A DNA stretch of 64,000 nucleotides from Planctomycetota bacterium (GCA_965223845.1 CBDCXR010000004.1:3200001-3264000), one strand, 5' to 3'. Positions 1 to 52,239 are shown, counted from the stretch's first letter. Numbers and translations: made by a program. Notes: generated by a model from the letters alone, not told the origin.

Positions 1-683
1 ACCATGACGTTCGACGGCTTGAGATCTCGGTGGACGACGCCTTCGCGGTGCGCGTGGTGAAGTCCGTCCGCAACCTCGGCGAACGCCTTCGCGACGCGGA
101 CGTAGTAGGACTGATCCTTCTCGAGGGGCGAGAACACCCCGCCGGCGACCGACGAATCCTTCGACCGTGTACCGGCGATGATCTCCGCGAGCGATTTTCC
201 CGCGATGAACTCCATCGCGTAGTACGGAGTATCGGACTCAACGCCGAGCGAATGGACGCCGACGATCGCTTCGTGACGGAGCCGACCGGCCGTCTGCGCT
301 TCGCGCATGAAGCGAAGGAACGCGGTTCGATCCGCCGCGACTCCGGTCGGAAGAATCTTCAGCGCGACCCGGCGATCCATCGACTCCTGGTGGGCCTCGT
401 ACACGACGCCCATGCCGCCGCGACCGAGCTCGCGCACGAGGCGAAAGTCCCCGAGGCGTCGAAGCTGCATCGGCTCCGGCCGGCCGAGACGGACGAAATT
501 CTCGAGCCGATCGACGACCTCGTGTCCGATCCCCGGATGTGCGGTCAGGACCGCGAGTGGATCGAGCTCTTCACCCGCGATCAGGCGATCGATCCATTCG
601 CCGACCGCGTCCTCGATCGCTCGCTCGGAAGCGTCGTCGTCGAGCTCTGAACGGACCGCGTCGCCGAAGTCACGATCCGCCAT
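1..683 (-). CDS. Hanks-type Ser/Thr protein kinase (N-terminal part; runs off window edge)
   Basis: Manual translation from ATG 683 (SD GGAGGAGG): MADRDFGD...LGDFRLVRELGRGGMGVVYEA...RRVALKIL...VVHRDLKPSNVM. Absent from the ORF track because it is truncated. Confidence 0.95.
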   Translation of the reverse strand, partial: MADRDFGDAVRSELDDDASERAIEDAVGEWIDRLIAGEELDPLAVLTAHPGIGHEVVDRLENFVRLGRPEPMQLRRLGDFRLVRELGRGGMGVVYEAHQESMDRRVALKILPTGVAADRTAFLRFMREAQTAGRLRHEAIVGVHSLGVESDTPYYAMEFIAGKSLAEIIAGTRSKDSSVAGGVFSPLEKDQSYYVRVAKAFAEVADGLHHAHREGVVHRDLKPSNVM

Positions 684-1296
684 CGCCACCTCCTCCGTGG
701 GGAAACGGCGAGACGAGTCGAAGGCTTCCGGTCGAGTCGCCGTAGTGGCGACGGAGCTCGCGAAGCGCCCGGGCGAGTAGCTTCTTCACCGCGTTCGGCG
801 TGCGGTTCATCCGCGCCGCGACCTCGGCGATGGGGAGGCCATCGATGCGCGTGAGCGTCGCAACCTCGCGGTGATCGCCGGAAAGATCCGCGAGCGCGCG
901 CTCGAGTCGCTTGCGCCGCTCCTTCCGCGCTGCGCGCGTCCCGGGTGTTGTGCGTCTGTCCGCGACGGGTTCGAGCACGAGCGTGACGCGCTTCTTCTGA
1001 CTCACCTTCCAGATCACGTGCTCGGCGATGCGGGCGAGCCACCGGAAGAATCGCTCCTCCCCCGACCAGACGAAGCTCTCGACGGCCGAACAAGCCTTGA
1101 GGAGGGTTTCCTGGACGACATCGTCACCCTCGATCGACTCGCGCACGCGCGGTCCGAGACGCCCTTCCACGTGACGCCGAAGGCGCGGAAGCTGCGTCTC
1201 GATGAGCGCCTCGAGCGCGCCGGGGTCTCCAGCGACGGCCCGCGCGGCGAGATCCTCGATGGGAGCTTGATCCACGGTGATCCGGTCCGTAGGCAC
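670..1296 (-). CDS. ECF sigma-70 factor, planctomycete kinase-associated type
   Basis: Sigma2 (DDVVQETLLKA...FFRWLARIAEH) and sigma4 (LSGDHREVATLTRIDGLPIAEVAARMNRTPNAVKKLLARAL). Start moved from ORF 1506 to GTG 1296 after GAAGGA. Overlaps the kinase start by 14 nt. Confidence 0.92.
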   Translation of the reverse strand: MPTDRITVDQAPIEDLAARAVAGDPGALEALIETQLPRLRRHVEGRLGPRVRESIEGDDVVQETLLKACSAVESFVWSGEERFFRWLARIAEHVIWKVSQKKRVTLVLEPVADRRTTPGTRAARKERRKRLERALADLSGDHREVATLTRIDGLPIAEVAARMNRTPNAVKKLLARALRELRRHYGDSTGSLRLVSPFPHGGGGDGGS

Positions 1297-1682
1297 GACA
1301 CCAATCCTTCGTCGCCCCGGGGGACGCCCAGCTCCGGGGATGTTCGACGATCGAAGCACCCGTTCCAAGATAGACATGGACGGCGCCTGCGGCCAGGGTG
1401 GTGCGGGCGTGACAAAAAAAAGTGAGGCGGAGCCGCCGCTGAATGACACGGGGCGGTCCGCCTCACACGTGAGGGTCAGTAGGAGGCGGAGCGGGCCCTG
1501 TCGCACTAGGGCGCCTGCTTCCGCGGACTAGAGTCGTCTCGACGCGCTGAGGTGCCGCGAAATCTTCGCGGATGGGTACCGAACGCGACGCGTACGGAAA
1601 ACGCGAGACCGACCGGCTCGTCCGCGGGAGCGATCACCTCCCGCATTGGGGTCGTCGAGTCGAAGAACCCCGAAAACCGAGC

Positions 1683-3349: not shown

Positions 3350-6300
3350 TCATTCCTTTGGCACGGACAGAACGACCGCTTCTTCTTCGCCCGAACGCAC
3401 CACCAGGTCCCGCAAGAGATCCTCACGAACGCCGGGCAGCCGGTAGCGGAGTCGATAGGAACCCGGCGGGATGCCTCCGAAGCGAAACGTCCGGTCTTCG
3501 TTGACCGTGGCGGTGACACGGTGGAAGGCTTCCCCGGCCGTTTCGAGAATCACGCGTCGACCGGGCGTGAACGCGCCGGCGTCGATCGTTCCGCTCACTC
3601 GGCCGTGCTTCGTCGCGAGCGAGTTCAGATCGAGCTCGGCATCGACGGTCGCCCCCTCCGAAACATCCGCGAACACGATCCCCGCGGCCGATCGATCGAG
3701 TTCGAGCACGATGCGGAAGCGACCGGCCGGCAGGCCTTCGAATTCCATGGCGCCGGGCTGAGCGCTTCGCGACGCGCGGAACGGTACGCCGGAGCTTCCA
3801 AATCCGTCGAGCTGGAGGACGGAGATCGAACGTCGAGTGGAGACCGCGCCGTGATCGGCGACTCGAACCCGCAGGCGAGCTTCGTGACGAAGCGCGAGCT
3901 CGAGCCGCGCTCCGGACGTCACATCGCCGACGACGCGAGTGCCGAACTCGCTCCTCCACGCCGCGACACCGTACGACTCACCCGGTGTGAACGAGTCGAA
4001 GAGGAATCGACCGCCGGCGTCGGTCCGCACGAACCAGCTCGGCCCTTCGACGAGCGCCCGTTCCGAAAGGAGATGCGCTCCGAATCCGCCGCGAAAGAGA
4101 CGCACCGCAACATCCGCCAGCGGCTCTCCGGTCGCCGCGTCGGTGACGCGTCCCTCGATCGGTACCACCTTCTCCAGCCAGACGTTCACGCCCTCGATCC
4201 ACCCCTTCGATTCCACGTGAAGCCGATCGGTCCGCGCCGGTGCAAACCCCGGCGCTCGCACTTCGATCACGCACGCGCCGGGAGGGACCTCCCCAAACGA
4301 AAACTCACCGCTCTCGGAGTGCACCGGCTTCCATACGCCCGTCTCGCCCGCCGGAACGACGCGATACGAGACCGCGCGCAGTTCGAAACTAGCGACGGGA
4401 TCACCGCTCGCGGTGGCGACGACACGCCCGCGCACGCCACCGAAGCGCTCGAGGACGAAGTCGACTCCGGTCGCGTCGAGCTCGACGCCACGGAGATCGC
4501 CGCGCGCGAATCCCGGGCGGTCGGCGATGAGGTCGAACTTGGCTCCCTGACCGAGGTTCTGGAGCCGGTAGGTTCCGTCGGCGTTCGTGCGGGCTCGCTC
4601 GTGCACGCCCGACCCGTCCCTCGAAAAGGCGCGAACCTCCGCGCCCGCGATCGGCGCCCCGGAGGCGTCGACGACTCGACCCGAGAGTGAACCTTCCTGG
4701 AGACGGCGGAGGACAAACTCGAGTCCGATCGCGTCTCCCGAGACGGGAACGACGAACGATTGCTGCGTCGAAGTGTGGTATCGATTCGTACGCGGGTAGA
4801 CGACGAACGTTCCCGGTGCGAATCCGCTCACGCGAAAGGTGCCGTCCTCCGAGGTTTGTGCCTCGGGCATTCCGAAACGCGATGTCGTGCGAGCGAATCG
4901 GCGAGCGAACTGAAGGGGAAGCCCTCCGATCGCTCGACCGCGATCGTCGACGAATTTCCCCGCGACCTGGCGTCCAGGGGCGAGACGGACGTCCACTCGC
5001 GGTGTCGCAACGCCGCGACGAAGGGACCGAGCCTCGCTCGCTCCCGGCGCGTAGCCGGGAGCCGAGGCGATCGCGATGTAGGTCTCGCCGAAGCGGAGTC
5101 CACGGTACCGAAACTCGCCCGCAGCGTCGGTCGATTCCTCCCAAGTCTCGTACGACGACGACAGCGTGTCCGCCTCGCGGTCGTAGACGTAAGAAGAAGC
5201 GGACGCGACGACACGCACCGTCGCTCCGGGCACGCCGTTCCCGTCGGGATCCGACACCCGACCGGTGATCGTCCCACCGCGCTCGAGATCGATCTCGACG
5301 ATCTTCTCCGCTTCCCCATCCGCTACGCGCACGGGGTCGAGACGCGTCGTCCGAAAGTAGCCGGGCGCGACGTACGCCATGCCGCCGAGTGGAAACGCAA
5401 ACTCGTAGACGCCGGCGGGGAGGTCGATGAAGACGTACTCTTCGTCGCTCCGAATCGGTCGACGCACGAGGACGTCGAGTCCGACCAGCGCAAGTCTCTC
5501 GGCGATGCCGTCGTGGTCGAAGGCTCGACCCTCGAGGCGAAACTCAAGATCCGCGACCGGAGTCTGCGATTCTCCTTCTACGACTCGACAACGAAGACGC
5601 GCGAGCGGTCGAAGTCGAATCGTTACGGTGCTCCGTCCGGACTCGGAATCCGCTCGAATCTCCGCCGCGAGGCCGATCCCGAAGTCCCGGTGGTACGCGG
5701 TGACGGTCGAGTCGATCGTAAGGTTCTCCGGCCATGCGAATTCGCCAGTCGGTCCGGATCGCAACATTCGCCGAGTGTCTCCGAGCGAGAGAGCGACGAC
5801 TGCGTCGGGCACGGGACGACTGAGTTCATCCACGACACGCCCCGTGATCGTGTCGGCGGCGTTGTTCGGCGTCGCCGTTCGACTCTGGCCGCCCGAAGAG
5901 GCGCCTTCTACCGCACTCGTGTCTTCGATTTCCGTTCGTTCGGAAACGATCTCGTCGCCGCCCGGCGTCCACCGTTCAGCTCCCATCCAGATTCCGCCGA
6001 GCAGCGCGAGAACGAGAACGCCGAACCAGAGCTTCTTCATCGCAATCCATCCTCCGACAAGAACCGCTGGGGTCTCTACGACGGTGACTCCCGAGACGGC
6101 GAGCTTTCCGAGCGTCGCGTGGAGAGCAGGCGAAGCGGCCGCTCGCGCCTCGCCGGTGAGTGCCGCCCCGAGCGCGAGCGCGCTGATGACCACCCCGCGC
6201 TTCCGCAGGCCATCGCGAAGCCGATCGAGCCCACGCCCCACACGACGGTGGACAGCGGATCGAGTCAAGCCGATCGAATCCGCGATCGACTGCTGACTCT

Positions 6301-46176: not shown

Positions 46177-49032
46177 ATGAAAACGCAGCCCAGTTCCTCT
46201 CGTGTGGACTCCGCGATCGTCAAATCGATCCGCGCCGGACGCACCGAGGATTTCGAGAAGCTCGTTCTCCGCTGGCAGAAGCCTGCATTCGCAGTCGCGG
46301 TTGCGGTCGGAGTTCCCCCAGATCACGCTGCGGACGCACTGCAGGAAGCGTTCGTCCGAGCGCTTCGCGAGATCGAATCCCTCCGAGATCCCGGTTCGTT
46401 CGGTCCGTGGTTTCTCGCGATCGTCCGCAACGTCGCGCGGCGCCAGCTCGCGGATGCTCGCCGGATGGTGCTTTCACCGAACGTCGAGCTCAGCGCGGAG
46501 TCGTACTCCGATTCATTCGAAAAGCGAGAGTTCAATCGCTATGTCTGGTCGAAGGTCGACGCGCTTCCGGAGGCTCTACGCGAGGCGCTCGTCCTCTACT
46601 ACTGGGAGGGTGAGTCCGTGCGCAGCGTGGCGCGCGCGCTCGGGACCACGGCGGCGGCGGTCAAAAACCGTCTCCACAAGGGACGCGAAATCCTGAGGGA
46701 GAGACTGTGGCGCGAAATCGGAACCTCGATTCGCGACATGCTCCCTTCTGCGCGCGAGTGGAAACGCGGTGCGCGCCGCGTCTCCCTCATCGCAATCGCG
46801 AGTCTCCCCGCCGCTTGGACTCCGGTAGCGGCGGCCGGAGTGCACTCCGCCGCGACGACCGCCGTCTCGTCCGTGGCGGCCGAATCCACGGTGTCAGGAG
46901 GTCTCCTACTTATGAGCGGCAAAGTCGCACCGTCGATCGCGATCGGCTCGGTTCTTCTCTTTCTGACGGGGTTCTTCGCGGGCTACTCCATGGAGGAGCC
47001 GCGCCCCGAGAACAACTCGAAGGCTCCTACCGTAGTCGCGACCGAAACTCCCGCGCGCGCGGCGGCGCCGCAGACGGCGAACGATCTCGGGAGCCGGAGC
47101 GGAAACAGAGTAGACGACGCGCCGGCCGAGGTCGCCGTTGTTCGAGCTCCGCCGGACGAAGAGGTCACGACCGGAGCCTTGCGCGTCTCAGCGGTGTGGG
47201 CGCAGACGAACGAACCCGCCGCGGGGGTCCGCATCGAAGTCGAGCCTCGCGGTACGACCTTCCCACGCTACGCCGATCTCGCCGGCACAACGGACGATCG
47301 AGGCGTCGCCGTCATCGCGGCCGTTCCGGCCGGAATCGCGACCGTGCGAGCCGATCGCGCGTGGCCGCGGGGGCACGTGCGCGCTAGTCGCGCGGAGATT
47401 GCCGCCGGCGAGACGACCGAGTTTTTTCTTCGCCTCGAAGATCAGATCACCGTGGCGGGTCGCGTCGTCGACGCCGACGGTAGGCGCGTCCCCGACGCCG
47501 AGATCTGGCTCACTCGGAGCACCTTCGATCCGCATCAATCCGCGCGCATCTCAGCCTCGGACGAGAACGGCGAATTCTCTCTCCGCGGGGTCGAGAGCGG
47601 GCGCTACGTGTTTGCGCGGAAAGACGGTTTCGAGCCGTCGAAGATTCACGCCGCTAGAGGCGAGAGCGGCGACACGATGGTGCTCGAGCTTCAGCTCCCC
47701 GGTCGCGGGGGTGCGGTCGCCGGTCGCGTCTTCGCTCCCGATCGCAGCCCGGTGGCCGGAGCGCTCGTCGTGCTCGGGGATCGCCCCGGGATGAGCGGAG
47801 CGTACATCGCCCCGCCCGCTCCAATCGCGCTTCGCTCGGACCCCGACGGAGCCTTCGCTCTCGCGGGCCTTCAGCCCGGCCGCGTTCCCTTGCTCGTTCG
47901 GGCACCTGGACTCGCGCCGAGAGATACGTTCGTCGACGTGCAAGCGGGCGTTGAGGTCGAAGTCGACATCGAGCTCGAGCCGGGTGCAAGCCTCGCCGGA
48001 CGCGTCACCGACGCAAGCGGCTCACCCATCGAGCGCGCGCGGGTCGAGGTCGCGGTGGTTGAGGATCCTCTGCGTACGAATCCCGTGAATACCCACACGT
48101 GGACGGATGCTCGCGGCGATTTCGTCATCGAAGGACTCGCCGCAGGTCCGACTCCGGTCGCCATCAGCGCTCGCGGACGGCAGTCGTACCGAGAATCCGT
48201 CGAGCTCGCGCTCGGAGAGACCATCGAGATCGACGTCGAGCTTCGCGGGACCGTCACCCTCCGTGGCCGCGTCGTGTTCGAGGACGGAAACCCGATGACG
48301 AACGGGATCGTCATCGTTGCGGGCGTCTGGGAAAAGCTCGACCGTGAAGGGCGCTTTTCGGTGGAGAACGTCGAAGAGCGCGACTACTCCCTCTCGGTGA
48401 GAGAGCGTGAGCAACGGTTCGACTGCTTCCGCGCGGACGTCCGACCGTCGGAGGAGGAGATCACGATCGTCGTCCCGGAAGAAAACCGTGCGACCGCGTT
48501 CGTCGCGGGGAAGATACTCGACGCCGACGGAAGCGCGGTTTGGAAGGCAGAAGTTCTCTGCCTGAAGAAGGATCCCTGGCACGAGAGCAGCGTGCGATCC
48601 GGGTTTTTCGGCGGATTTCGGGTCGGACCGCTTCCTCCGGGTGACTACCGTGTGGCCGCGAAAACGAGCGCCGGCGCGAGGACGTGGCTCACGCGAACCA
48701 TCCGCGTCGAAGCAGGCGAATCGGTCGATGTCGGTGAGTTCAAGCTCGCCGCGGGCGGAGCATTGCGCACCGAGTTCGCACCCGGAGCGCGACAAGAGGG
48801 TCTCTGGCTCCTCGTGCTCGACAGCGACGATCTCCCCGTCGTCGCGGACCACGTAACGGCTGAGCGTTCACGGACGGATCCGGTCGTCGCGGGAAGGTAT
48901 CGCGTCACTCTTCGTCGTGGCGGGAAGGTCGCGTTTGAGCAATCCGTCGAGATCGAAGCGGACGCCGAGACGGTTCTTCGCGTCGGTGCGGACGACATCG
49001 CGGACGACACCACAGACGAGGAAGCTCCATGA
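46177..49032 (+). CDS. membrane-tethered ECF sigma factor fused to carboxypeptidase-regulatory-like repeats
   Basis: Sigma2 (HAADALQEAFVRA...FGPWFLAIVRN) and sigma4 (LPEALREALVLYYWEGES...VKNRLHKGR), Ala-rich linker, TM (IAIGSVLLFLTGFFAGY), repeated GRVxDxxGxP modules. Start moved to ATG 46177. Confidence 0.93.
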   Translation: MKTQPSSSRVDSAIVKSIRAGRTEDFEKLVLRWQKPAFAVAVAVGVPPDHAADALQEAFVRALREIESLRDPGSFGPWFLAIVRNVARRQLADARRMVLSPNVELSAESYSDSFEKREFNRYVWSKVDALPEALREALVLYYWEGESVRSVARALGTTAAAVKNRLHKGREILRERLWREIGTSIRDMLPSAREWKRGARRVSLIAIASLPAAWTPVAAAGVHSAATTAVSSVAAESTVSGGLLLMSGKVAPSIAIGSVLLFLTGFFAGYSMEEPRPENNSKAPTVVATETPARAAAPQTANDLGSRSGNRVDDAPAEVAVVRAPPDEEVTTGALRVSAVWAQTNEPAAGVRIEVEPRGTTFPRYADLAGTTDDRGVAVIAAVPAGIATVRADRAWPRGHVRASRAEIAAGETTEFFLRLEDQITVAGRVVDADGRRVPDAEIWLTRSTFDPHQSARISASDENGEFSLRGVESGRYVFARKDGFEPSKIHAARGESGDTMVLELQLPGRGGAVAGRVFAPDRSPVAGALVVLGDRPGMSGAYIAPPAPIALRSDPDGAFALAGLQPGRVPLLVRAPGLAPRDTFVDVQAGVEVEVDIELEPGASLAGRVTDASGSPIERARVEVAVVEDPLRTNPVNTHTWTDARGDFVIEGLAAGPTPVAISARGRQSYRESVELALGETIEIDVELRGTVTLRGRVVFEDGNPMTNGIVIVAGVWEKLDREGRFSVENVEERDYSLSVREREQRFDCFRADVRPSEEEITIVVPEENRATAFVAGKILDADGSAVWKAEVLCLKKDPWHESSVRSGFFGGFRVGPLPPGDYRVAAKTSAGARTWLTRTIRVEAGESVDVGEFKLAAGGALRTEFAPGARQEGLWLLVLDSDDLPVVADHVTAERSRTDPVVAGRYRVTLRRGGKVAFEQSVEIEADAETVLRVGADDIADDTTDEEAP
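46896..46914 (+). promoter_or_regulatory. internal in-frame ribosome-binding site and ATG within ECF fusion gene
   Basis: AGGAGGT-ctcctactt-ATG; ATG at 46912 is in frame. Confidence 0.6.
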
Positions 49033-50078
49033 ACGCAGGGCGATGGATCGGAGTAGCGGTAGGAGCGGCGGTCATCATCGCAGTGGGGTTCTTCGCCGGC
49101 CGCGCGATGCGGGGCGTCGGCGAGCATCCCTCCGGCGCGGAAGGATCGTCGCGAGACGCGCCGAACGACACAGAAACGCCGGAGGAGACTTTGGGGCCGA
49201 TCGCATCGCCCATCTCCCCTGCCGCACCGACCGAGACCGTTCGTCCGAGCGAAGACGGGTCCGCGTCGCCCGCGCGCCGTGGACTCGCCGAGCTTTCGGC
49301 AGACGACTGGAAGGTCATCCGAGCCGTCCTCGAGATCGAAATGCCGTCGTCGCTCGAAAACCTTCGCCGCCTCTCCTCAGACCGGGCGTTCGCAAATGCG
49401 CGAGAGACCGTCCGCGGGAAGTTTCCGACCGTGGAGCCGGACGGACGGGGCGAGCTCACGCACCCCGCCGTGGTGACTGCGCTCATCGAAGCGCTGCTTG
49501 AGAACGCGGGAGTCCCGCTCGACGAAGAACAGTGGAAAGCCGCGGAGGAGCTCGTCGCTGACTACACGGATGCCCTCGCCGACGTCCAGAACCTTCACGG
49601 CGCCAATACGCCGAAGTTCGAGAAGGTCATCGACGAGGTCGGGCTCAAGCAAGACTTCCTCGACGCTCTGTCGGAGGGCCTCTCGGAGCCGCAGCGAACT
49701 GCACTCCGGAATGTCTCGCCCGCGGGAGAGGACTTTCCCGCGATCGCGTCTCCGCTTGTGATGGCCGACTTCGAAATCCACGAGGTACCGACCGACTCCC
49801 TCGACGAGCTTCGCGCCGGCTTCGCGAGCGAGCTCGCCGACGATTTCGAAATCTCCCTCGAATCCGCCGCGGTCCTCAATGAGCGCTATTTCGCGGCGAT
49901 CGCCCCCCTCCTCCGGAACGGTGGAGAGAGCTGGTCCACCATCGACCGCGCTCTCCTCGCGGGTCGGGCGCAGATCGAACTCTTCCGGCCGATCCTCGAG
50001 CTTCCCGATCTCGACGATCGCGCCCGGCGCAAGATCGTCGAGCGACTGCGCTGGCTGGTGATGGTTCCGGCCGAGTGA
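49029..50078 (+). CDS. membrane-anchored helical protein, sigma-less homolog of the C-terminal part of 50512-52239
   Basis: ATGA overlap with the upstream ECF gene; N-terminal TM; shares DWK, EAxL..G..LDxEQ and ERY/ERF blocks with 50512-52239. Confidence 0.8.
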   Translation: MNAGRWIGVAVGAAVIIAVGFFAGRAMRGVGEHPSGAEGSSRDAPNDTETPEETLGPIASPISPAAPTETVRPSEDGSASPARRGLAELSADDWKVIRAVLEIEMPSSLENLRRLSSDRAFANARETVRGKFPTVEPDGRGELTHPAVVTALIEALLENAGVPLDEEQWKAAEELVADYTDALADVQNLHGANTPKFEKVIDEVGLKQDFLDALSEGLSEPQRTALRNVSPAGEDFPAIASPLVMADFEIHEVPTDSLDELRAGFASELADDFEISLESAAVLNERYFAAIAPLLRNGGESWSTIDRALLAGRAQIELFRPILELPDLDDRARRKIVERLRWLVMVPAE

Positions 50079-50141
50079 GATTCTCACCTCGGCACGACGA
50101 CAACATCCCGCACTCGAGCGCACCCGATCGACGCGGCCCTT

Positions 50142-50159
50142 GAGCGGGAGCACCCGCTC
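50142..50159. other. GC-rich hairpin downstream of 49029-50078
   Basis: GAGCGGG-agca-CCCGCTC; no U-tract, so not a classical intrinsic terminator. Confidence 0.3.
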
Positions 50160-50511
50160 CGAGAGAGATCTCGAGCGCGGCGCCGTTTCCCGCGTCGGCC
50201 GCACCGGGAAGGCGTTGAAGCGCCCGCGGAGCGTAGAGCTCAGAGGAGAGCGCTCGGATGGTGTCGACGCGGTCACCACGGTCTCCGCGGTCCGGGAGTG
50301 ACCGTCGGAAACGCGCTTCGCCTTCGGGCGAGGTCCATCATAAGCTTGGGCCCAGACGCGCTTTCGGAGCTTTCGTTCCCGTTTTGGGTCGCTCTGCTTC
50401 GAGTTGTGATCTCCCCGCCACGCCGATCGCGGCGCCCAGCCGTCCCGCTCCGCTACGCCCGAGAGAAAACCCGCATCACCGCGCCTCCGCTCGGGCTCTA
50501 TCTCATAGACC

Positions 50512-52239
50512 ATGAACGAACCTCCCGCCCCTTTCCTCGATCCCGACGCGCTCCTTGAAAACGGAGCGTGGATCCGCGAGTTGGCGCAGCGTCTCGTCGC
50601 GGATTCTTCCCGGGCGGACGACGTCGCACAGGACGCCTGGCTGTGCGCGGCCACTCGCACACTCGACGCGCCGCGGCGACCGCGTTCGTGGTTGTTCACC
50701 GTCGTCCGCAACCTCGTCGCCCGGTCGTATCGCGCCGATGCTCGCCGAGCCGCACGCGAACGATCCGTCGCCCGACCCGAGCGTGTGGACTCGAGCGCCG
50801 AGGCGATCCTCGAGCGCGCGGAACTCCAGCGTCAGGTCACGTCGGTCGTGCTCGAGTTGCGAGAGCCTTACCGCTCGACCGTGCTTCTTCGCTACTTCGA
50901 GGGTCTCACTCCAGAGTCGATCGCTCGACGCGAGGGAGTCGCTCCGGCGACGGTGAGATCTCGTCTCGGGCGCGCGCTCGGCGAGCTGCGCACACGTCTC
51001 GACCGGGAACATCGCGCGTGGACGATCCTCGCGTCTCCCCTCCTCGGATCTCCGACAACGACGGCCGGTTCGGGTTCGGTCGGATTCGCCACTGCAGGAG
51101 CGATCGCCATGAGCGAAAAAACTTTCTGGGCCGTCGCGGGCTGCGCCCTTCTCGGAACGGCGGTGGGCTGGGGCGTGCACACCGCGCTCTCTCCCGCCGA
51201 TGTCTCCGGTCGCCTCAATACGGCACTCGCTGCGGCTAAGGCACTCGAGGCCGAAGTCGAGCGCCTGCGCGACGAGCTCGACGAAACGAGTGACCGAGCG
51301 GGTCGACTCAAGGACGAGAACGAGGCTTTGCTCGCTCGCGTCGAAGACCTGACTCGTCGCTCGGTCGAGACGCAAGCGCCGTCCGTACCCGCCTCGTCCG
51401 CTGCCGCGGTTGGCGCTACCGACACGCTGGACTGGAAGAGCCTCGCCCAATTGGTCCGAGCGAACGCGGAGCTCTTGAGAAAACGGCAGGACACCCTGAG
51501 TTCAGCGGAGGAAGCGGCGCTCGCGTCGCTTCGCGGTAGAATTCTCGCCCTGGGCGCGGCGGCTAAGAGCGAATACGAGCGCCCGCTGCTCGTCCCCGGG
51601 TTTCTCAGCGATTTCGCCGAGGCGATTCTCGGCTCGGGCCTCGGCCTCGACGACGAGCAGCGCGAACTTCTGCGCGAACTCACCGAAGAGATCGAATCGA
51701 ATCTTCCCGCTCCCGACGCAGAGCTCTCACCGACCGAGCGTTACGCCATGCGCCGAGATCTCGTCGATTCTCTTCACGAGGAGCTCGAGACTCTGCTCGA
51801 TGAAGAACAGCTCGAGGCTTGGCCGCAACTCCAGGAGTACTCGCGCGGCCTCCTCCGGTACGGCGACCAGATGAGAATCGGGATCGATACTCCGCCAGAG
51901 AATTTCGTACGGCTCTGGGCGTCGAACACACTCCGGGCCGGAGAAACGGCCATCGACTTCGACTCGCTGGCACCGAGCGTCGAGCGCTTCTACGAAGACG
52001 TGCGCTCGGTGCTCGATCAGCACGGCGCGACGGATCCCGAGCGGTACGACAATCTAACACCCGAAAGTCGTCGACAGCTCCGAAACGAGCTTCTTCGCCT
52101 GCAGGGGACATTCGACCGCGAGGCGCTTCCGCTCGTCCCCGAGGACATTCGCGCGCGGTATCTCGATCGACCTCCGATGATCCTGGAGTTTCGGCCGGGG
52201 ACGAGCGTCGGAGTGACCGTGCGGGGAACGGTGTTCTGA
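50512..52239 (+). CDS. membrane-tethered ECF sigma factor fused to a coiled-coil/helical extracytoplasmic domain
   Basis: Sigma2 (RADDVAQDAWL...RSWLFTVVRN) and sigma4 (LREPYRSTVLLRYFEGLT...VRSRLGRAL), TM (TFWAVAGCALLGTAVGWGV), coiled coil (LEAEVERLRDELDE). Confidence 0.92.
   Translation: MNEPPAPFLDPDALLENGAWIRELAQRLVADSSRADDVAQDAWLCAATRTLDAPRRPRSWLFTVVRNLVARSYRADARRAARERSVARPERVDSSAEAILERAELQRQVTSVVLELREPYRSTVLLRYFEGLTPESIARREGVAPATVRSRLGRALGELRTRLDREHRAWTILASPLLGSPTTTAGSGSVGFATAGAIAMSEKTFWAVAGCALLGTAVGWGVHTALSPADVSGRLNTALAAAKALEAEVERLRDELDETSDRAGRLKDENEALLARVEDLTRRSVETQAPSVPASSAAAVGATDTLDWKSLAQLVRANAELLRKRQDTLSSAEEAALASLRGRILALGAAAKSEYERPLLVPGFLSDFAEAILGSGLGLDDEQRELLRELTEEIESNLPAPDAELSPTERYAMRRDLVDSLHEELETLLDEEQLEAWPQLQEYSRGLLRYGDQMRIGIDTPPENFVRLWASNTLRAGETAIDFDSLAPSVERFYEDVRSVLDQHGATDPERYDNLTPESRRQLRNELLRLQGTFDREALPLVPEDIRARYLDRPPMILEFRPGTSVGVTVRGTVF
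51096..51111 (+). promoter_or_regulatory. internal in-frame ribosome-binding site and ATG within ECF fusion gene
   Basis: AGGAG-cgatcgcc-ATGAGCGAAAAA; ATG at 51109 is codon 200. Confidence 0.55.

Follow-up and report, generated by a model that had tools for sequence, protein, structure and literature searches.

Membrane-tethered ECF sigma factor genes of a planctomycete carry a conserved internal ribosome-binding site and start codon that probably give a second, sigma-less product

A 64,000-nucleotide stretch of a Planctomycetota bacterium (GCA_965223845.1 CBDCXR010000004.1:3200001-3264000), referred to here as the window, encodes three membrane-tethered sigma factors of the extracytoplasmic function (ECF) type: gene 1 on the minus strand and genes 2 and 3 on the plus strand. 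In each of them a sigma factor, a transmembrane (TM) helix and an extracytoplasmic domain share one stop-free frame of 575-1122 aa, and directly before the TM helix lies a Shine-Dalgarno (SD) sequence followed by an in-frame start codon. The same arrangement recurs in most of the long sigma fusions of this genome and in related genomes, and we propose that it probably serves as an internal initiation site. The host assembly is 7.93 Mb in size with 65% GC, and its nearest named relatives are metagenome-assembled genomes (MAGs) of Planctomycetota.

All three ORFs (open reading frames) contain Sigma70_r2 and Sigma70_r4_2 followed by a hydrophobic helix. PF04542 matches genes 1-3 with E-values of 1e-10 to 1e-14, region 4 is matched by both PF08281 and PF04545, and Pfam gave no Sigma70_r3 or r1 in the three proteins at E <= 0.01. 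All three exceed the cut-off of TIGR02937, the NCBIfam model of the sigma70-ECF superfamily, and that of no narrower NCBIfam model. With regions 2 and 4 and neither 1 nor 3, the three proteins belong to the ECF (group 4) class of sigma-70 factors. The linker from region 4 to the TM helix is 40-70 residues long and contains no stop, and no Pfam family of an anti-sigma module (zf-HC2, RskA or FecR) was found between the two at E <= 0.01 in genes 1-3. Beyond the helix the genes differ: four CarboxypepD_reg stretches were identified by Pfam in gene 2, while the C-terminal 376 aa of gene 3 retrieved only itself, both in its own genome and in a search of 5.8 billion proteins (lengths 206-658 aa).

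The internal site has the same layout in each gene. The first-pass annotation of the window, made from the sequence alone, had placed in-frame ATGs at 6040 (minus strand), 46912 and 51109, each behind an SD with a spacer of 9, 9 and 8 nt respectively, and these positions and spacers are exact. Its further remark that the SD is written on a glycine codon also holds, with an in-frame GGA under the SD in all three genes, and the nested frames are open over the 896, 706 and 376 aa it had given. It had also judged the internal SDs of genes 2 and 3 to be better than anything before their primary starts; the ATGs at 46177 and 50512 indeed have no SD by the criteria used here. The 3' end of the genome's own 16S rRNA reads ...GGATCACCTCCTTTCT, so that the anti-SD is canonical. 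Against this tail the SD duplex of gene 2 ranks within the lowest 0.3% when all in-frame start-capable codons in the fusion ORFs are compared. The first 291 residues of gene 2 were modelled with AlphaFold2 from a 64-sequence alignment; the model has a mean pLDDT of 80.7, with values above 90 in the sigma domains, and places two moderate-confidence helices after region 4 (192-229), including helix 212-229. Met246, the candidate internal start, falls in a coil of low confidence (residues 231-250, pLDDT <50) that links helix 212-229 to the TM helix. That the motif sits in such a coil, and not in a folded domain, fits a signal acting at the RNA level.

A PF04542 profile search of the whole genome gave 82 matches to sigma region 2, of which 21 have at least 300 residues after region 2 and make up the long fusion set. 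Eighteen of these 21 have an SD and an in-frame ATG (13), GTG (3) or TTG (2) situated 3-5 codons before a Lys-flanked TM helix. Sixteen of the 18 SDs are 5-mers (GGAGG or AGGAG) placed at 7-10 nt, and the other two are 4-mers. At the protein level the pre-TM residues of the 18 follow the pattern G-[G/A/V]-h-h-(h)-M-x-x-K(K), and at the DNA level this is GGA-GNN, two to four codons and the start. The first-pass annotation had spoken of every membrane-tethered ECF gene, which is true of the window (3/3) and too broad for the genome, where the site occurs in 18/21 long fusions, or 18/22 with one shorter TM fusion counted. The 18 paralogs are 18-40% identical over the sigma-to-TM part, and the motif glycine and lysine (G238 and K246) are among the few nearly invariant columns of their alignment. 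The outside domains of the 18 short products are CarboxypepD_reg arrays in 13 and HEAT, TPR, LRR or nothing recognisable in five. The primary starts of the same genes have a 5-mer SD in two cases, a 4-mer in five and none in 11.

The occurrence of an SD and a start before the TM helix is far beyond chance. Counting in-frame start-capable codons (ATG, GTG or TTG) with a 5-mer SD at 4-12 nt, the 21 fusion ORFs contain 30 among 791, and 16 of these 30 are the pre-TM site. The background is 14/773 for the other in-frame start-capable codons of the same ORFs and 1.8% of 20393 internal ATGs genome-wide. Ordinary starts are less well provided: a 5-mer SD precedes about 10.5% of the first ATGs of long ORFs and 109/468 (23%) of ordinary signal-like N-terminal starts. 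Gene starts for the genome-wide backgrounds are crude, each being taken as the first ATG in a long ORF whose GC pattern resembles that of coding DNA. The comparison of anti-SD pairing energies that the first-pass annotation had suggested also came out in favour of the site, with a mean duplex energy of -9.2 kcal/mol at the 18 sites against -3.2 at the 773 other codons (Mann-Whitney p = 4e-12). The distance from GGAG to ATG at ordinary exported-protein starts of this genome peaks at 10-12 nt, and the internal sites match it. GC content dips to 0.43-0.60 from -36 to +18 of the site, and in 18/18 cases a 60-nt window placed there is less strongly folded than its ORF is on average (mean z +1.27). 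The sites thus offer an SD complementary to the genome's own 16S tail, at a working distance before an in-frame start, in locally open mRNA.

The choice of codons at the site was compared with the demands of the protein. The glycine at position -4 is encoded by GGA in 16/17 sequences, against 12/56 when five further Gly-rich columns of that alignment are taken together (Fisher p = 8e-8), and the second motif codon is GGC in 0/12; the preference for GGA over GGC that the first-pass annotation had proposed as a test is therefore present. For comparison, GGA makes up 25.7% of Gly codons in the fusion genes, TTG 6.4% of Leu codons and GTG 27.5% of Val codons. A larger set of 61 sites, drawn from this genome, its relatives and MAGs, has GGAG in frame in 58/58, and in 43 its first G stands 12 nt ahead of the start. 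Of the 61 sites, 52 have Gly at -4 and 43 have Lys at +3, while residue -3 is Gly, Ala or Val, all of whose codons begin with G, in 54/61. A short HMM (hidden Markov model) of the pre-TM motif scored too weakly outside this genome to place the start column, and it was replaced by TM-anchored windows and a protein-only motif rule (Gly at -4 and Lys or Arg at +2 or +3, adjoining the TM helix). The rule picked 74/146 sequences, in which position 0 is ATG in 39, GTG in 10 and TTG in four, against GTC in one and CTC in one. It shifts several sequences by one residue, and the 21 non-start cases are mostly such register slips beside a Met. Within this protein-only set, Gly(-4) is GGA in 46/53 sequences with a start codon at position 0 and in 8/21 otherwise (p = 6e-5), and where position 0 is Val or Leu the codon is GTG in 10/11 and TTG in 4/5. 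These synonymous and first-base preferences are beyond what a peptide motif can explain. Together, the use of GGA, the restriction at residue -3, the choice of GTG and TTG, the pairing energies and the folding speak for selection acting on the RNA as well as on the protein.

Homologous fusions in other genomes were scored as carrying the site if an SD of at least four nucleotides and a start codon lay inside a 13-codon pre-TM window; the calls of start site and TM helix in homologs are heuristic. Loci in relatives were found using a 7-sequence sub-alignment of the paralogs as query. Among 20 relatives of the same order, 22/42 TM fusions have an SD and start, and ATGs in the pre-TM window are preceded by an SD in 18/22 cases, against 37/261 for other in-frame ATGs. 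A collection of named genomes (80 loci; Planctomycetota and other MAGs) gave 21/54 TM fusions with the site and 15/26 pre-TM ATGs with an SD, against 54/400 elsewhere in frame. An even sample of the phylum comprised 61 genomes, 34 of which, with our own genome counted, have fusions at E <= 1e-35. The best loci of 29 other genomes were examined and 25 of them have a TM helix; an SD and start are present in 12/25 of these best TM loci, including genomes of 33%, 41% and 78% GC, and four more have an ATG without an SD. In a quick FastTree of the sigma domain (124 rows, many weak branches), two well-supported clades that span three families keep the site: the site is present in 11/12 rows of one, and in the other the start codon is present in 8/8 and the SD in seven. 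Terminal branches of this tree measure 0.3-1 changes per site. The SD enrichment at the pre-TM Met therefore extends to the relatives, the named MAGs and the phylum sample, and the residue itself is held in homologs as Met or as a GTG or TTG codon. Two of the outcomes that the first-pass annotation had named as refuting its proposal could be computed, namely a lack of SD enrichment and poor conservation of the Met, and neither was seen. Together with the codon-level tests, this conservation in clades indicates that SD and start are conserved beyond what the protein requires. From its distribution we take the site to be an old one that certain clades have retained, and not one shared by all TM-fused ECFs.

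Two loci, L124 and L136, come from MAGs labelled 'delta proteobacterium' or Myxococcota and likewise have an ATG ahead of the TM helix with an SD, which is GGAGG in L124 and no more than AGGA in L136. Either the design extends outside Planctomycetota or these may be mis-binned contigs.

Since translation initiation is the only common function that needs an SD, a start-capable codon and open RNA together, we read the pre-TM site as an internal start. Each of these genes is likely a single ORF in which translation can begin at two places, with the conserved internal start giving a sigma-less, membrane-anchored isoform, and from the sequence we infer that initiation takes place there in vivo. Translation from the primary start, whose SD is usually weak or missing, would give the full-length protein, consisting of a cytoplasmic ECF sigma factor, a linker, one TM helix and a large extracytoplasmic part. 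This last part is most often a CarboxypepD_reg beta-sandwich array. Ribosomes loading at the internal start would instead make an N-in single-pass protein with the same anchor and outside domain and without sigma factor or linker. The short product is predicted to comprise a cytoplasmic stub (M-S/K/T-x-K-K), the TM helix as an N-in signal anchor and the whole outside domain. The first-pass annotation had called this isoform sigma-less and exported; the loss of the sigma domains stands, and 'membrane-anchored' is the better term, as the anchor is kept and no clear signal-peptidase site was apparent on reading the sequences of the short products, for which no predictor was used. Given how much stronger the internal SD is than the primary one, the short form is likely to be more abundant than the long form and may be the major product.

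The long form would then be a minor, sigma-tagged copy of the same membrane protein. By analogy with fusions of the IutY type, we speculate that the sigma factor is freed from it by proteolysis, so that sigma activity would report on the untagged population. The untagged form could buffer or compete for a protease or ligand, or it could assemble with the tagged form. Fusions of the gene 3 type have a charged, heptad-like helical stretch directly after the TM helix (51200-51400, plus strand, in the window), which is also found in the homologs L020, L050, L054, L056, L058 and L074 and resembles a coiled coil on reading. A true coiled coil at this place could let the long and short forms pair. 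A complex prediction with two copies of the gene 3 short isoform gave a score of 0.29 (mark 0.32), which speaks neither for nor against pairing. A wider and much more tentative proposal, which we hold to be doubtful, is that tethered ECFs across the phylum form a class of two-product genes in which rare sigma-tagged sentinels monitor an abundant sigma-less surface or periplasmic protein. The fate monitored would be damage, ligand capture or proteolysis, cleavage would free the sigma factor and renew synthesis from the same ORF, and regulator, sensor and target would share one reading frame. It is also a possibility that the sigma domains, linker, SD, start and anchor form a unit that duplicates and captures downstream sequence, bringing to it an anchor and its own ribosome-binding site (RBS).

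The site might instead be a fossil RBS, left behind when a duplicated sigma2-sigma4 module was inserted in frame upstream of a membrane-protein gene, whose old start would still be visible and no longer used. Such a mechanism was put forward for Planctomycetes by Pinto and da Fonseca 2020 (PMC7671368), who hold the C-terminal extensions of planctomycetal ECFs to be sequestered downstream genes, and several observations agree with such an origin: the extensions are varied in content (CarboxypepD_reg in 13/18, the rest HEAT, TPR, LRR or nothing recognisable), that of gene 3 is an orphan, and the site is missing in about half of the homologs. Further, the paralog 1853901 (minus strand, G000:C4) retains an in-frame GGA GGT GG (GGAGGTGG) before its TM helix and, as no ATG, GTG or TTG follows, has the look of an internal start that has decayed. 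However, an unused signal of 8-10 nt should have decayed among sequences of 18-40% identity separated by branches of 0.3-1 changes per site, whereas it is kept in 11/12 and 7/8 members of the two clades spanning three families. Randomly captured starts would not be expected to have a uniform layout, with GGA at -4 and 12 nt spacing, or an SD far better than that of ordinary exported-protein starts (a 5-mer in 16/18 against 109/468), and the switches between ATG, GTG and TTG preserve the capacity to start. Capture of a downstream gene may well explain the origin of the site, not its retention, and we regard disuse as unlikely. Somewhat less likely still is that the conserved entity is the peptide motif G-G-x-x-M-x-x-K-K, serving insertion or protease recognition, or an SD-like elongation pause before the TM helix. 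The near-invariance of G238 and K246 shows that the motif is conserved as protein, 16 homologs keep the pre-TM Met without an SD by the criteria used here, and positive residues before a TM helix are expected from topology. The codon-level results, however, contradict both versions. A peptide motif leaves unexplained the choice of GGA (16/17 against 21%), the limit of residue -3 to codons starting with G, the use of GTG for Val (10/11) and TTG for Leu (4/5) at position 0, and the link between GGA and a start codon. An elongation pause set by the SD would come before the TM helix is made and requires no start codon, and in the model of gene 2 the motif lies in low-confidence coil.

A programmed frameshift of the dnaX type, in which an SD-like stimulator and a slippery Lys run would lead to an early stop and a soluble, untethered sigma factor, was considered as well. 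The paralog 3095390 has an in-frame A AAA AAG after its site, as such a mechanism would require; the sequence, near G000:C4 3096002 (plus strand), is GCA AAA AAG and follows an internal GTG. Since an X XXY YYZ heptamer is present in only 2/18 sites, we read it as a by-product of the Lys-Lys motif. Off-frame stops lie 0 to 259 codons away, like the ORF medians and not consistently near, the distance from SD to Lys is larger than in dnaX, and the conserved start codon would be left unexplained. No -1 site of the dnaX type, with a heptamer 10-14 nt from its stimulator and a near off-frame stop, was recognised, and we consider this explanation very improbable and set it aside.

Several points weigh against internal initiation as the function of the site. 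Within the genome, 1853901, 4938259, 6218105 and the shorter TM fusion 4839029 are without it (three or four fusions, depending on whether the last is counted), and 6218105 and 4938259 have no motif at all. About half of the fusions outside this genome also have no site, 31 of these homologs having a pre-TM ATG but no SD by the present criteria and 47 having neither an SD-led start nor an ATG, which implies that such fusions can exist without an internal start. Mapped on the sigma tree, presence of the site requires at least 32 changes over 124 rows, in part because the automatic TM and window calls are noisy. The p-values given above are overstated and indicative only because kin are not independent, and the low GC and weak folding around the site are partly due to its Lys codons. 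A common ECF-type promoter was looked for in the 220 nt ahead of each of the 18 primary starts, by 6-mer counts and a generic -35 GAAC/-10 CGT pattern (matched in 3/18), and none emerged. The functional model of a majority short form with sigma-tagged sentinels, being speculative, counts on the same side.

In-frame internal starts that give truncated proteoforms are established in bacteria, examples being ArcB/ArcB-C, infB, clpB and mrcB in the part of the study by Meydan et al. 2019 (bioRxiv 10.1101/520783) drawn on here. E. coli ArcB is similar to the present genes in having an SD-like sequence and an in-frame start (GUG in arcB) at a domain boundary of a membrane-bound signalling protein. 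There too the site is conserved among orthologs and the two products have a common C-terminus, as is predicted for the fusions. Unlike ArcB-C, which is a soluble cytoplasmic output domain, the short form predicted here keeps the anchor and outside domain and loses the sigma factor. The design is moreover found here in some 18 paralogs per genome and across the phylum, and is known from sequence alone. In type III secretion, the full-length and internally initiated C-terminal products of SctQ/YscQ/SpaO are reported to co-assemble (PMC4295842 and PMC13059759). Again one gene gives two in-frame products, the shorter being the C-terminal part of the longer, as is predicted here, and defined product ratios are thought important for assembly in that family. 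SctQ, YscQ and SpaO differ from the fusions in being cytosolic, with neither a sigma factor nor a membrane anchor.

ECFs with a membrane-spanning regulatory extension include IutY of Pseudomonas putida and the ECF52 protein SCO4117 of Streptomyces coelicolor (PMC8999054). Like the fusions of the window, they join sigma2-sigma4, a TM helix and an extracytoplasmic domain in a single ORF, and regulated proteolysis is the expected route by which the sigma factor is released and activated. Their extensions hold anti-sigma modules (FecR-like or zinc finger), unlike the linkers examined here, in which Pfam found none. Nothing is said of an internal start in the passages of PMC8999054 that cover these proteins. 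In PMC7671368, Pinto and da Fonseca 2020 described duplications of planctomycetal ECFs with 'sequestered' C-terminal extensions, and the genes of their account resemble ours in being many paralogous ECFs with long, dissimilar extensions up to about ten times the size of the sigma factor. Dozens of ECFs with very large C-terminal extensions are present in Planctomycetes, and whether the extensions do anything is a question asked in that paper. It treats the extension as part of the sigma factor and asks how such a sigma factor works; its main text never uses the term 'start codon'. The conserved internal SD and start suggest that the 'extension' may also be made on its own. A 2026 review of N-terminal proteoforms (PMC13515050) names sigma S, and no ECF or membrane-anchored sigma factor appears in the part of it consulted. 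Full-text searches of the literature turned up no paper that connects ECF or sigma fusions with internal initiation, although supplements such as those of PMC7826278 and PMC7671368, which lay outside the search, might be relevant. Internal initiation as such is known; for tethered ECF fusions no prior description was found.

If the site is used, about 18 proteins are missed in the annotation of this genome, and comparable numbers in related genomes. A conserved internal start would recast the 'extension' as a protein in its own right and the fusion as its tagged minority form, and sigma factors tethered to the membrane would be added to the few signalling proteins known to use nested proteoforms. 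The features of the three genes are listed in Table 1.

Table 1. Coordinates of the three tethered ECF genes and their candidate internal start sites, counted from the first letter of the window
Feature	Position	Strand	Remarks
Gene 1, full-length ORF, 1122 aa	3350..6718	-	ECF sigma, linker, TM, CarboxypepD_reg array (ORF and Pfam)
Gene 1, internal SD GGAGGA (codons GGA GGA)	6050..6055	-	Duplex -9.5 kcal/mol; 9 nt spacer
Gene 1, internal in-frame ATG	6038..6040	-	Would open nested product M-K-K + TM
Gene 1, nested ORF, sigma-less candidate isoform, 896 aa	3350..6040	-	
Gene 2, full-length ORF, 951 aa, from ATG 46177	46177..49032	+	ECF sigma, linker, TM, CarboxypepD_reg beta-sandwich array
Gene 2, sigma region 2, residues 29-96	46261..46464	+	PF04542 match G000:C4:3246261-3246464
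Gene 2, sigma region 4, residues 124-171	46546..46689	+	Pfam Sigma70_r4_2
Gene 2, internal SD AGGAGGT (codons TCA GGA GGT)	46896..46902	+	Duplex -11.0 kcal/mol; 9 nt spacer
Gene 2, internal in-frame ATG, Met246	46912..46914	+	Would open nested product M-S-G-K + TM
Gene 2, nested ORF, sigma-less candidate isoform, 706 aa	46912..49032	+	
Gene 2, TM helix, residues 251-270	46927..46986	+	AlphaFold2 helix and hydrophobic stretch
Gene 3, full-length ORF, 575 aa	50512..52239	+	ECF sigma, linker, TM, helix-rich stretch, orphan domain
Gene 3, sigma region 2	50560..50745	+	PF04542 match G000:C4:3250560-3250745 and Pfam on protein
Gene 3, sigma region 4, residues 108-157	50833..50982	+	Pfam
Gene 3, internal SD AGGAG (codons GCA GGA GCG)	51096..51100	+	Duplex -6.6 kcal/mol; 8 nt spacer
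Gene 3, internal in-frame ATG, Met200	51109..51111	+	Would open nested product M-S-E-K + TM
Gene 3, nested ORF, sigma-less candidate isoform, 376 aa	51109..52239	+	

Between genes 2 and 3 lies an ORF of 349 aa (49029-50078, plus strand) that encodes an N-terminal TM anchor and a domain matching no Pfam or NCBIfam family. Its start overlaps the stop codon of gene 2 in an ATGA, with GAGGAA just upstream, and it looks translationally coupled to gene 2. Its similarity to the C-terminal part of gene 3 (23% over 133 aa, E 0.099) is not significant.

The window contains a fourth sigma gene, a short ECF that is not membrane-tethered (670-1506, minus strand). It is overlapped directly downstream by an ORF (3-689, minus strand) with a protein-kinase-like glycine loop, which runs off the end of the window. 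The two resemble a pair of an ECF and a Ser/Thr kinase.

The genome was also scanned for long ORFs with an internal 5-mer SD and start followed by Lys or Arg and a TM helix. Two filter sets gave 8 and 10 matches, of which 2 and 6 are non-sigma candidates, most of them unconvincing; as the composition filters also removed the majority of known sigma sites, all that follows from the scan is that non-sigma candidates are few. The best non-sigma match, at about 6708025 on G000:C4 (plus strand), is an ATG that has AGGAG at 7 nt and leads into a sequence resembling a signal peptide. This ATG is 493 codons into a long open frame and may represent a further nested start, or else the start of an ordinary gene preceded by a frame that is open by chance.

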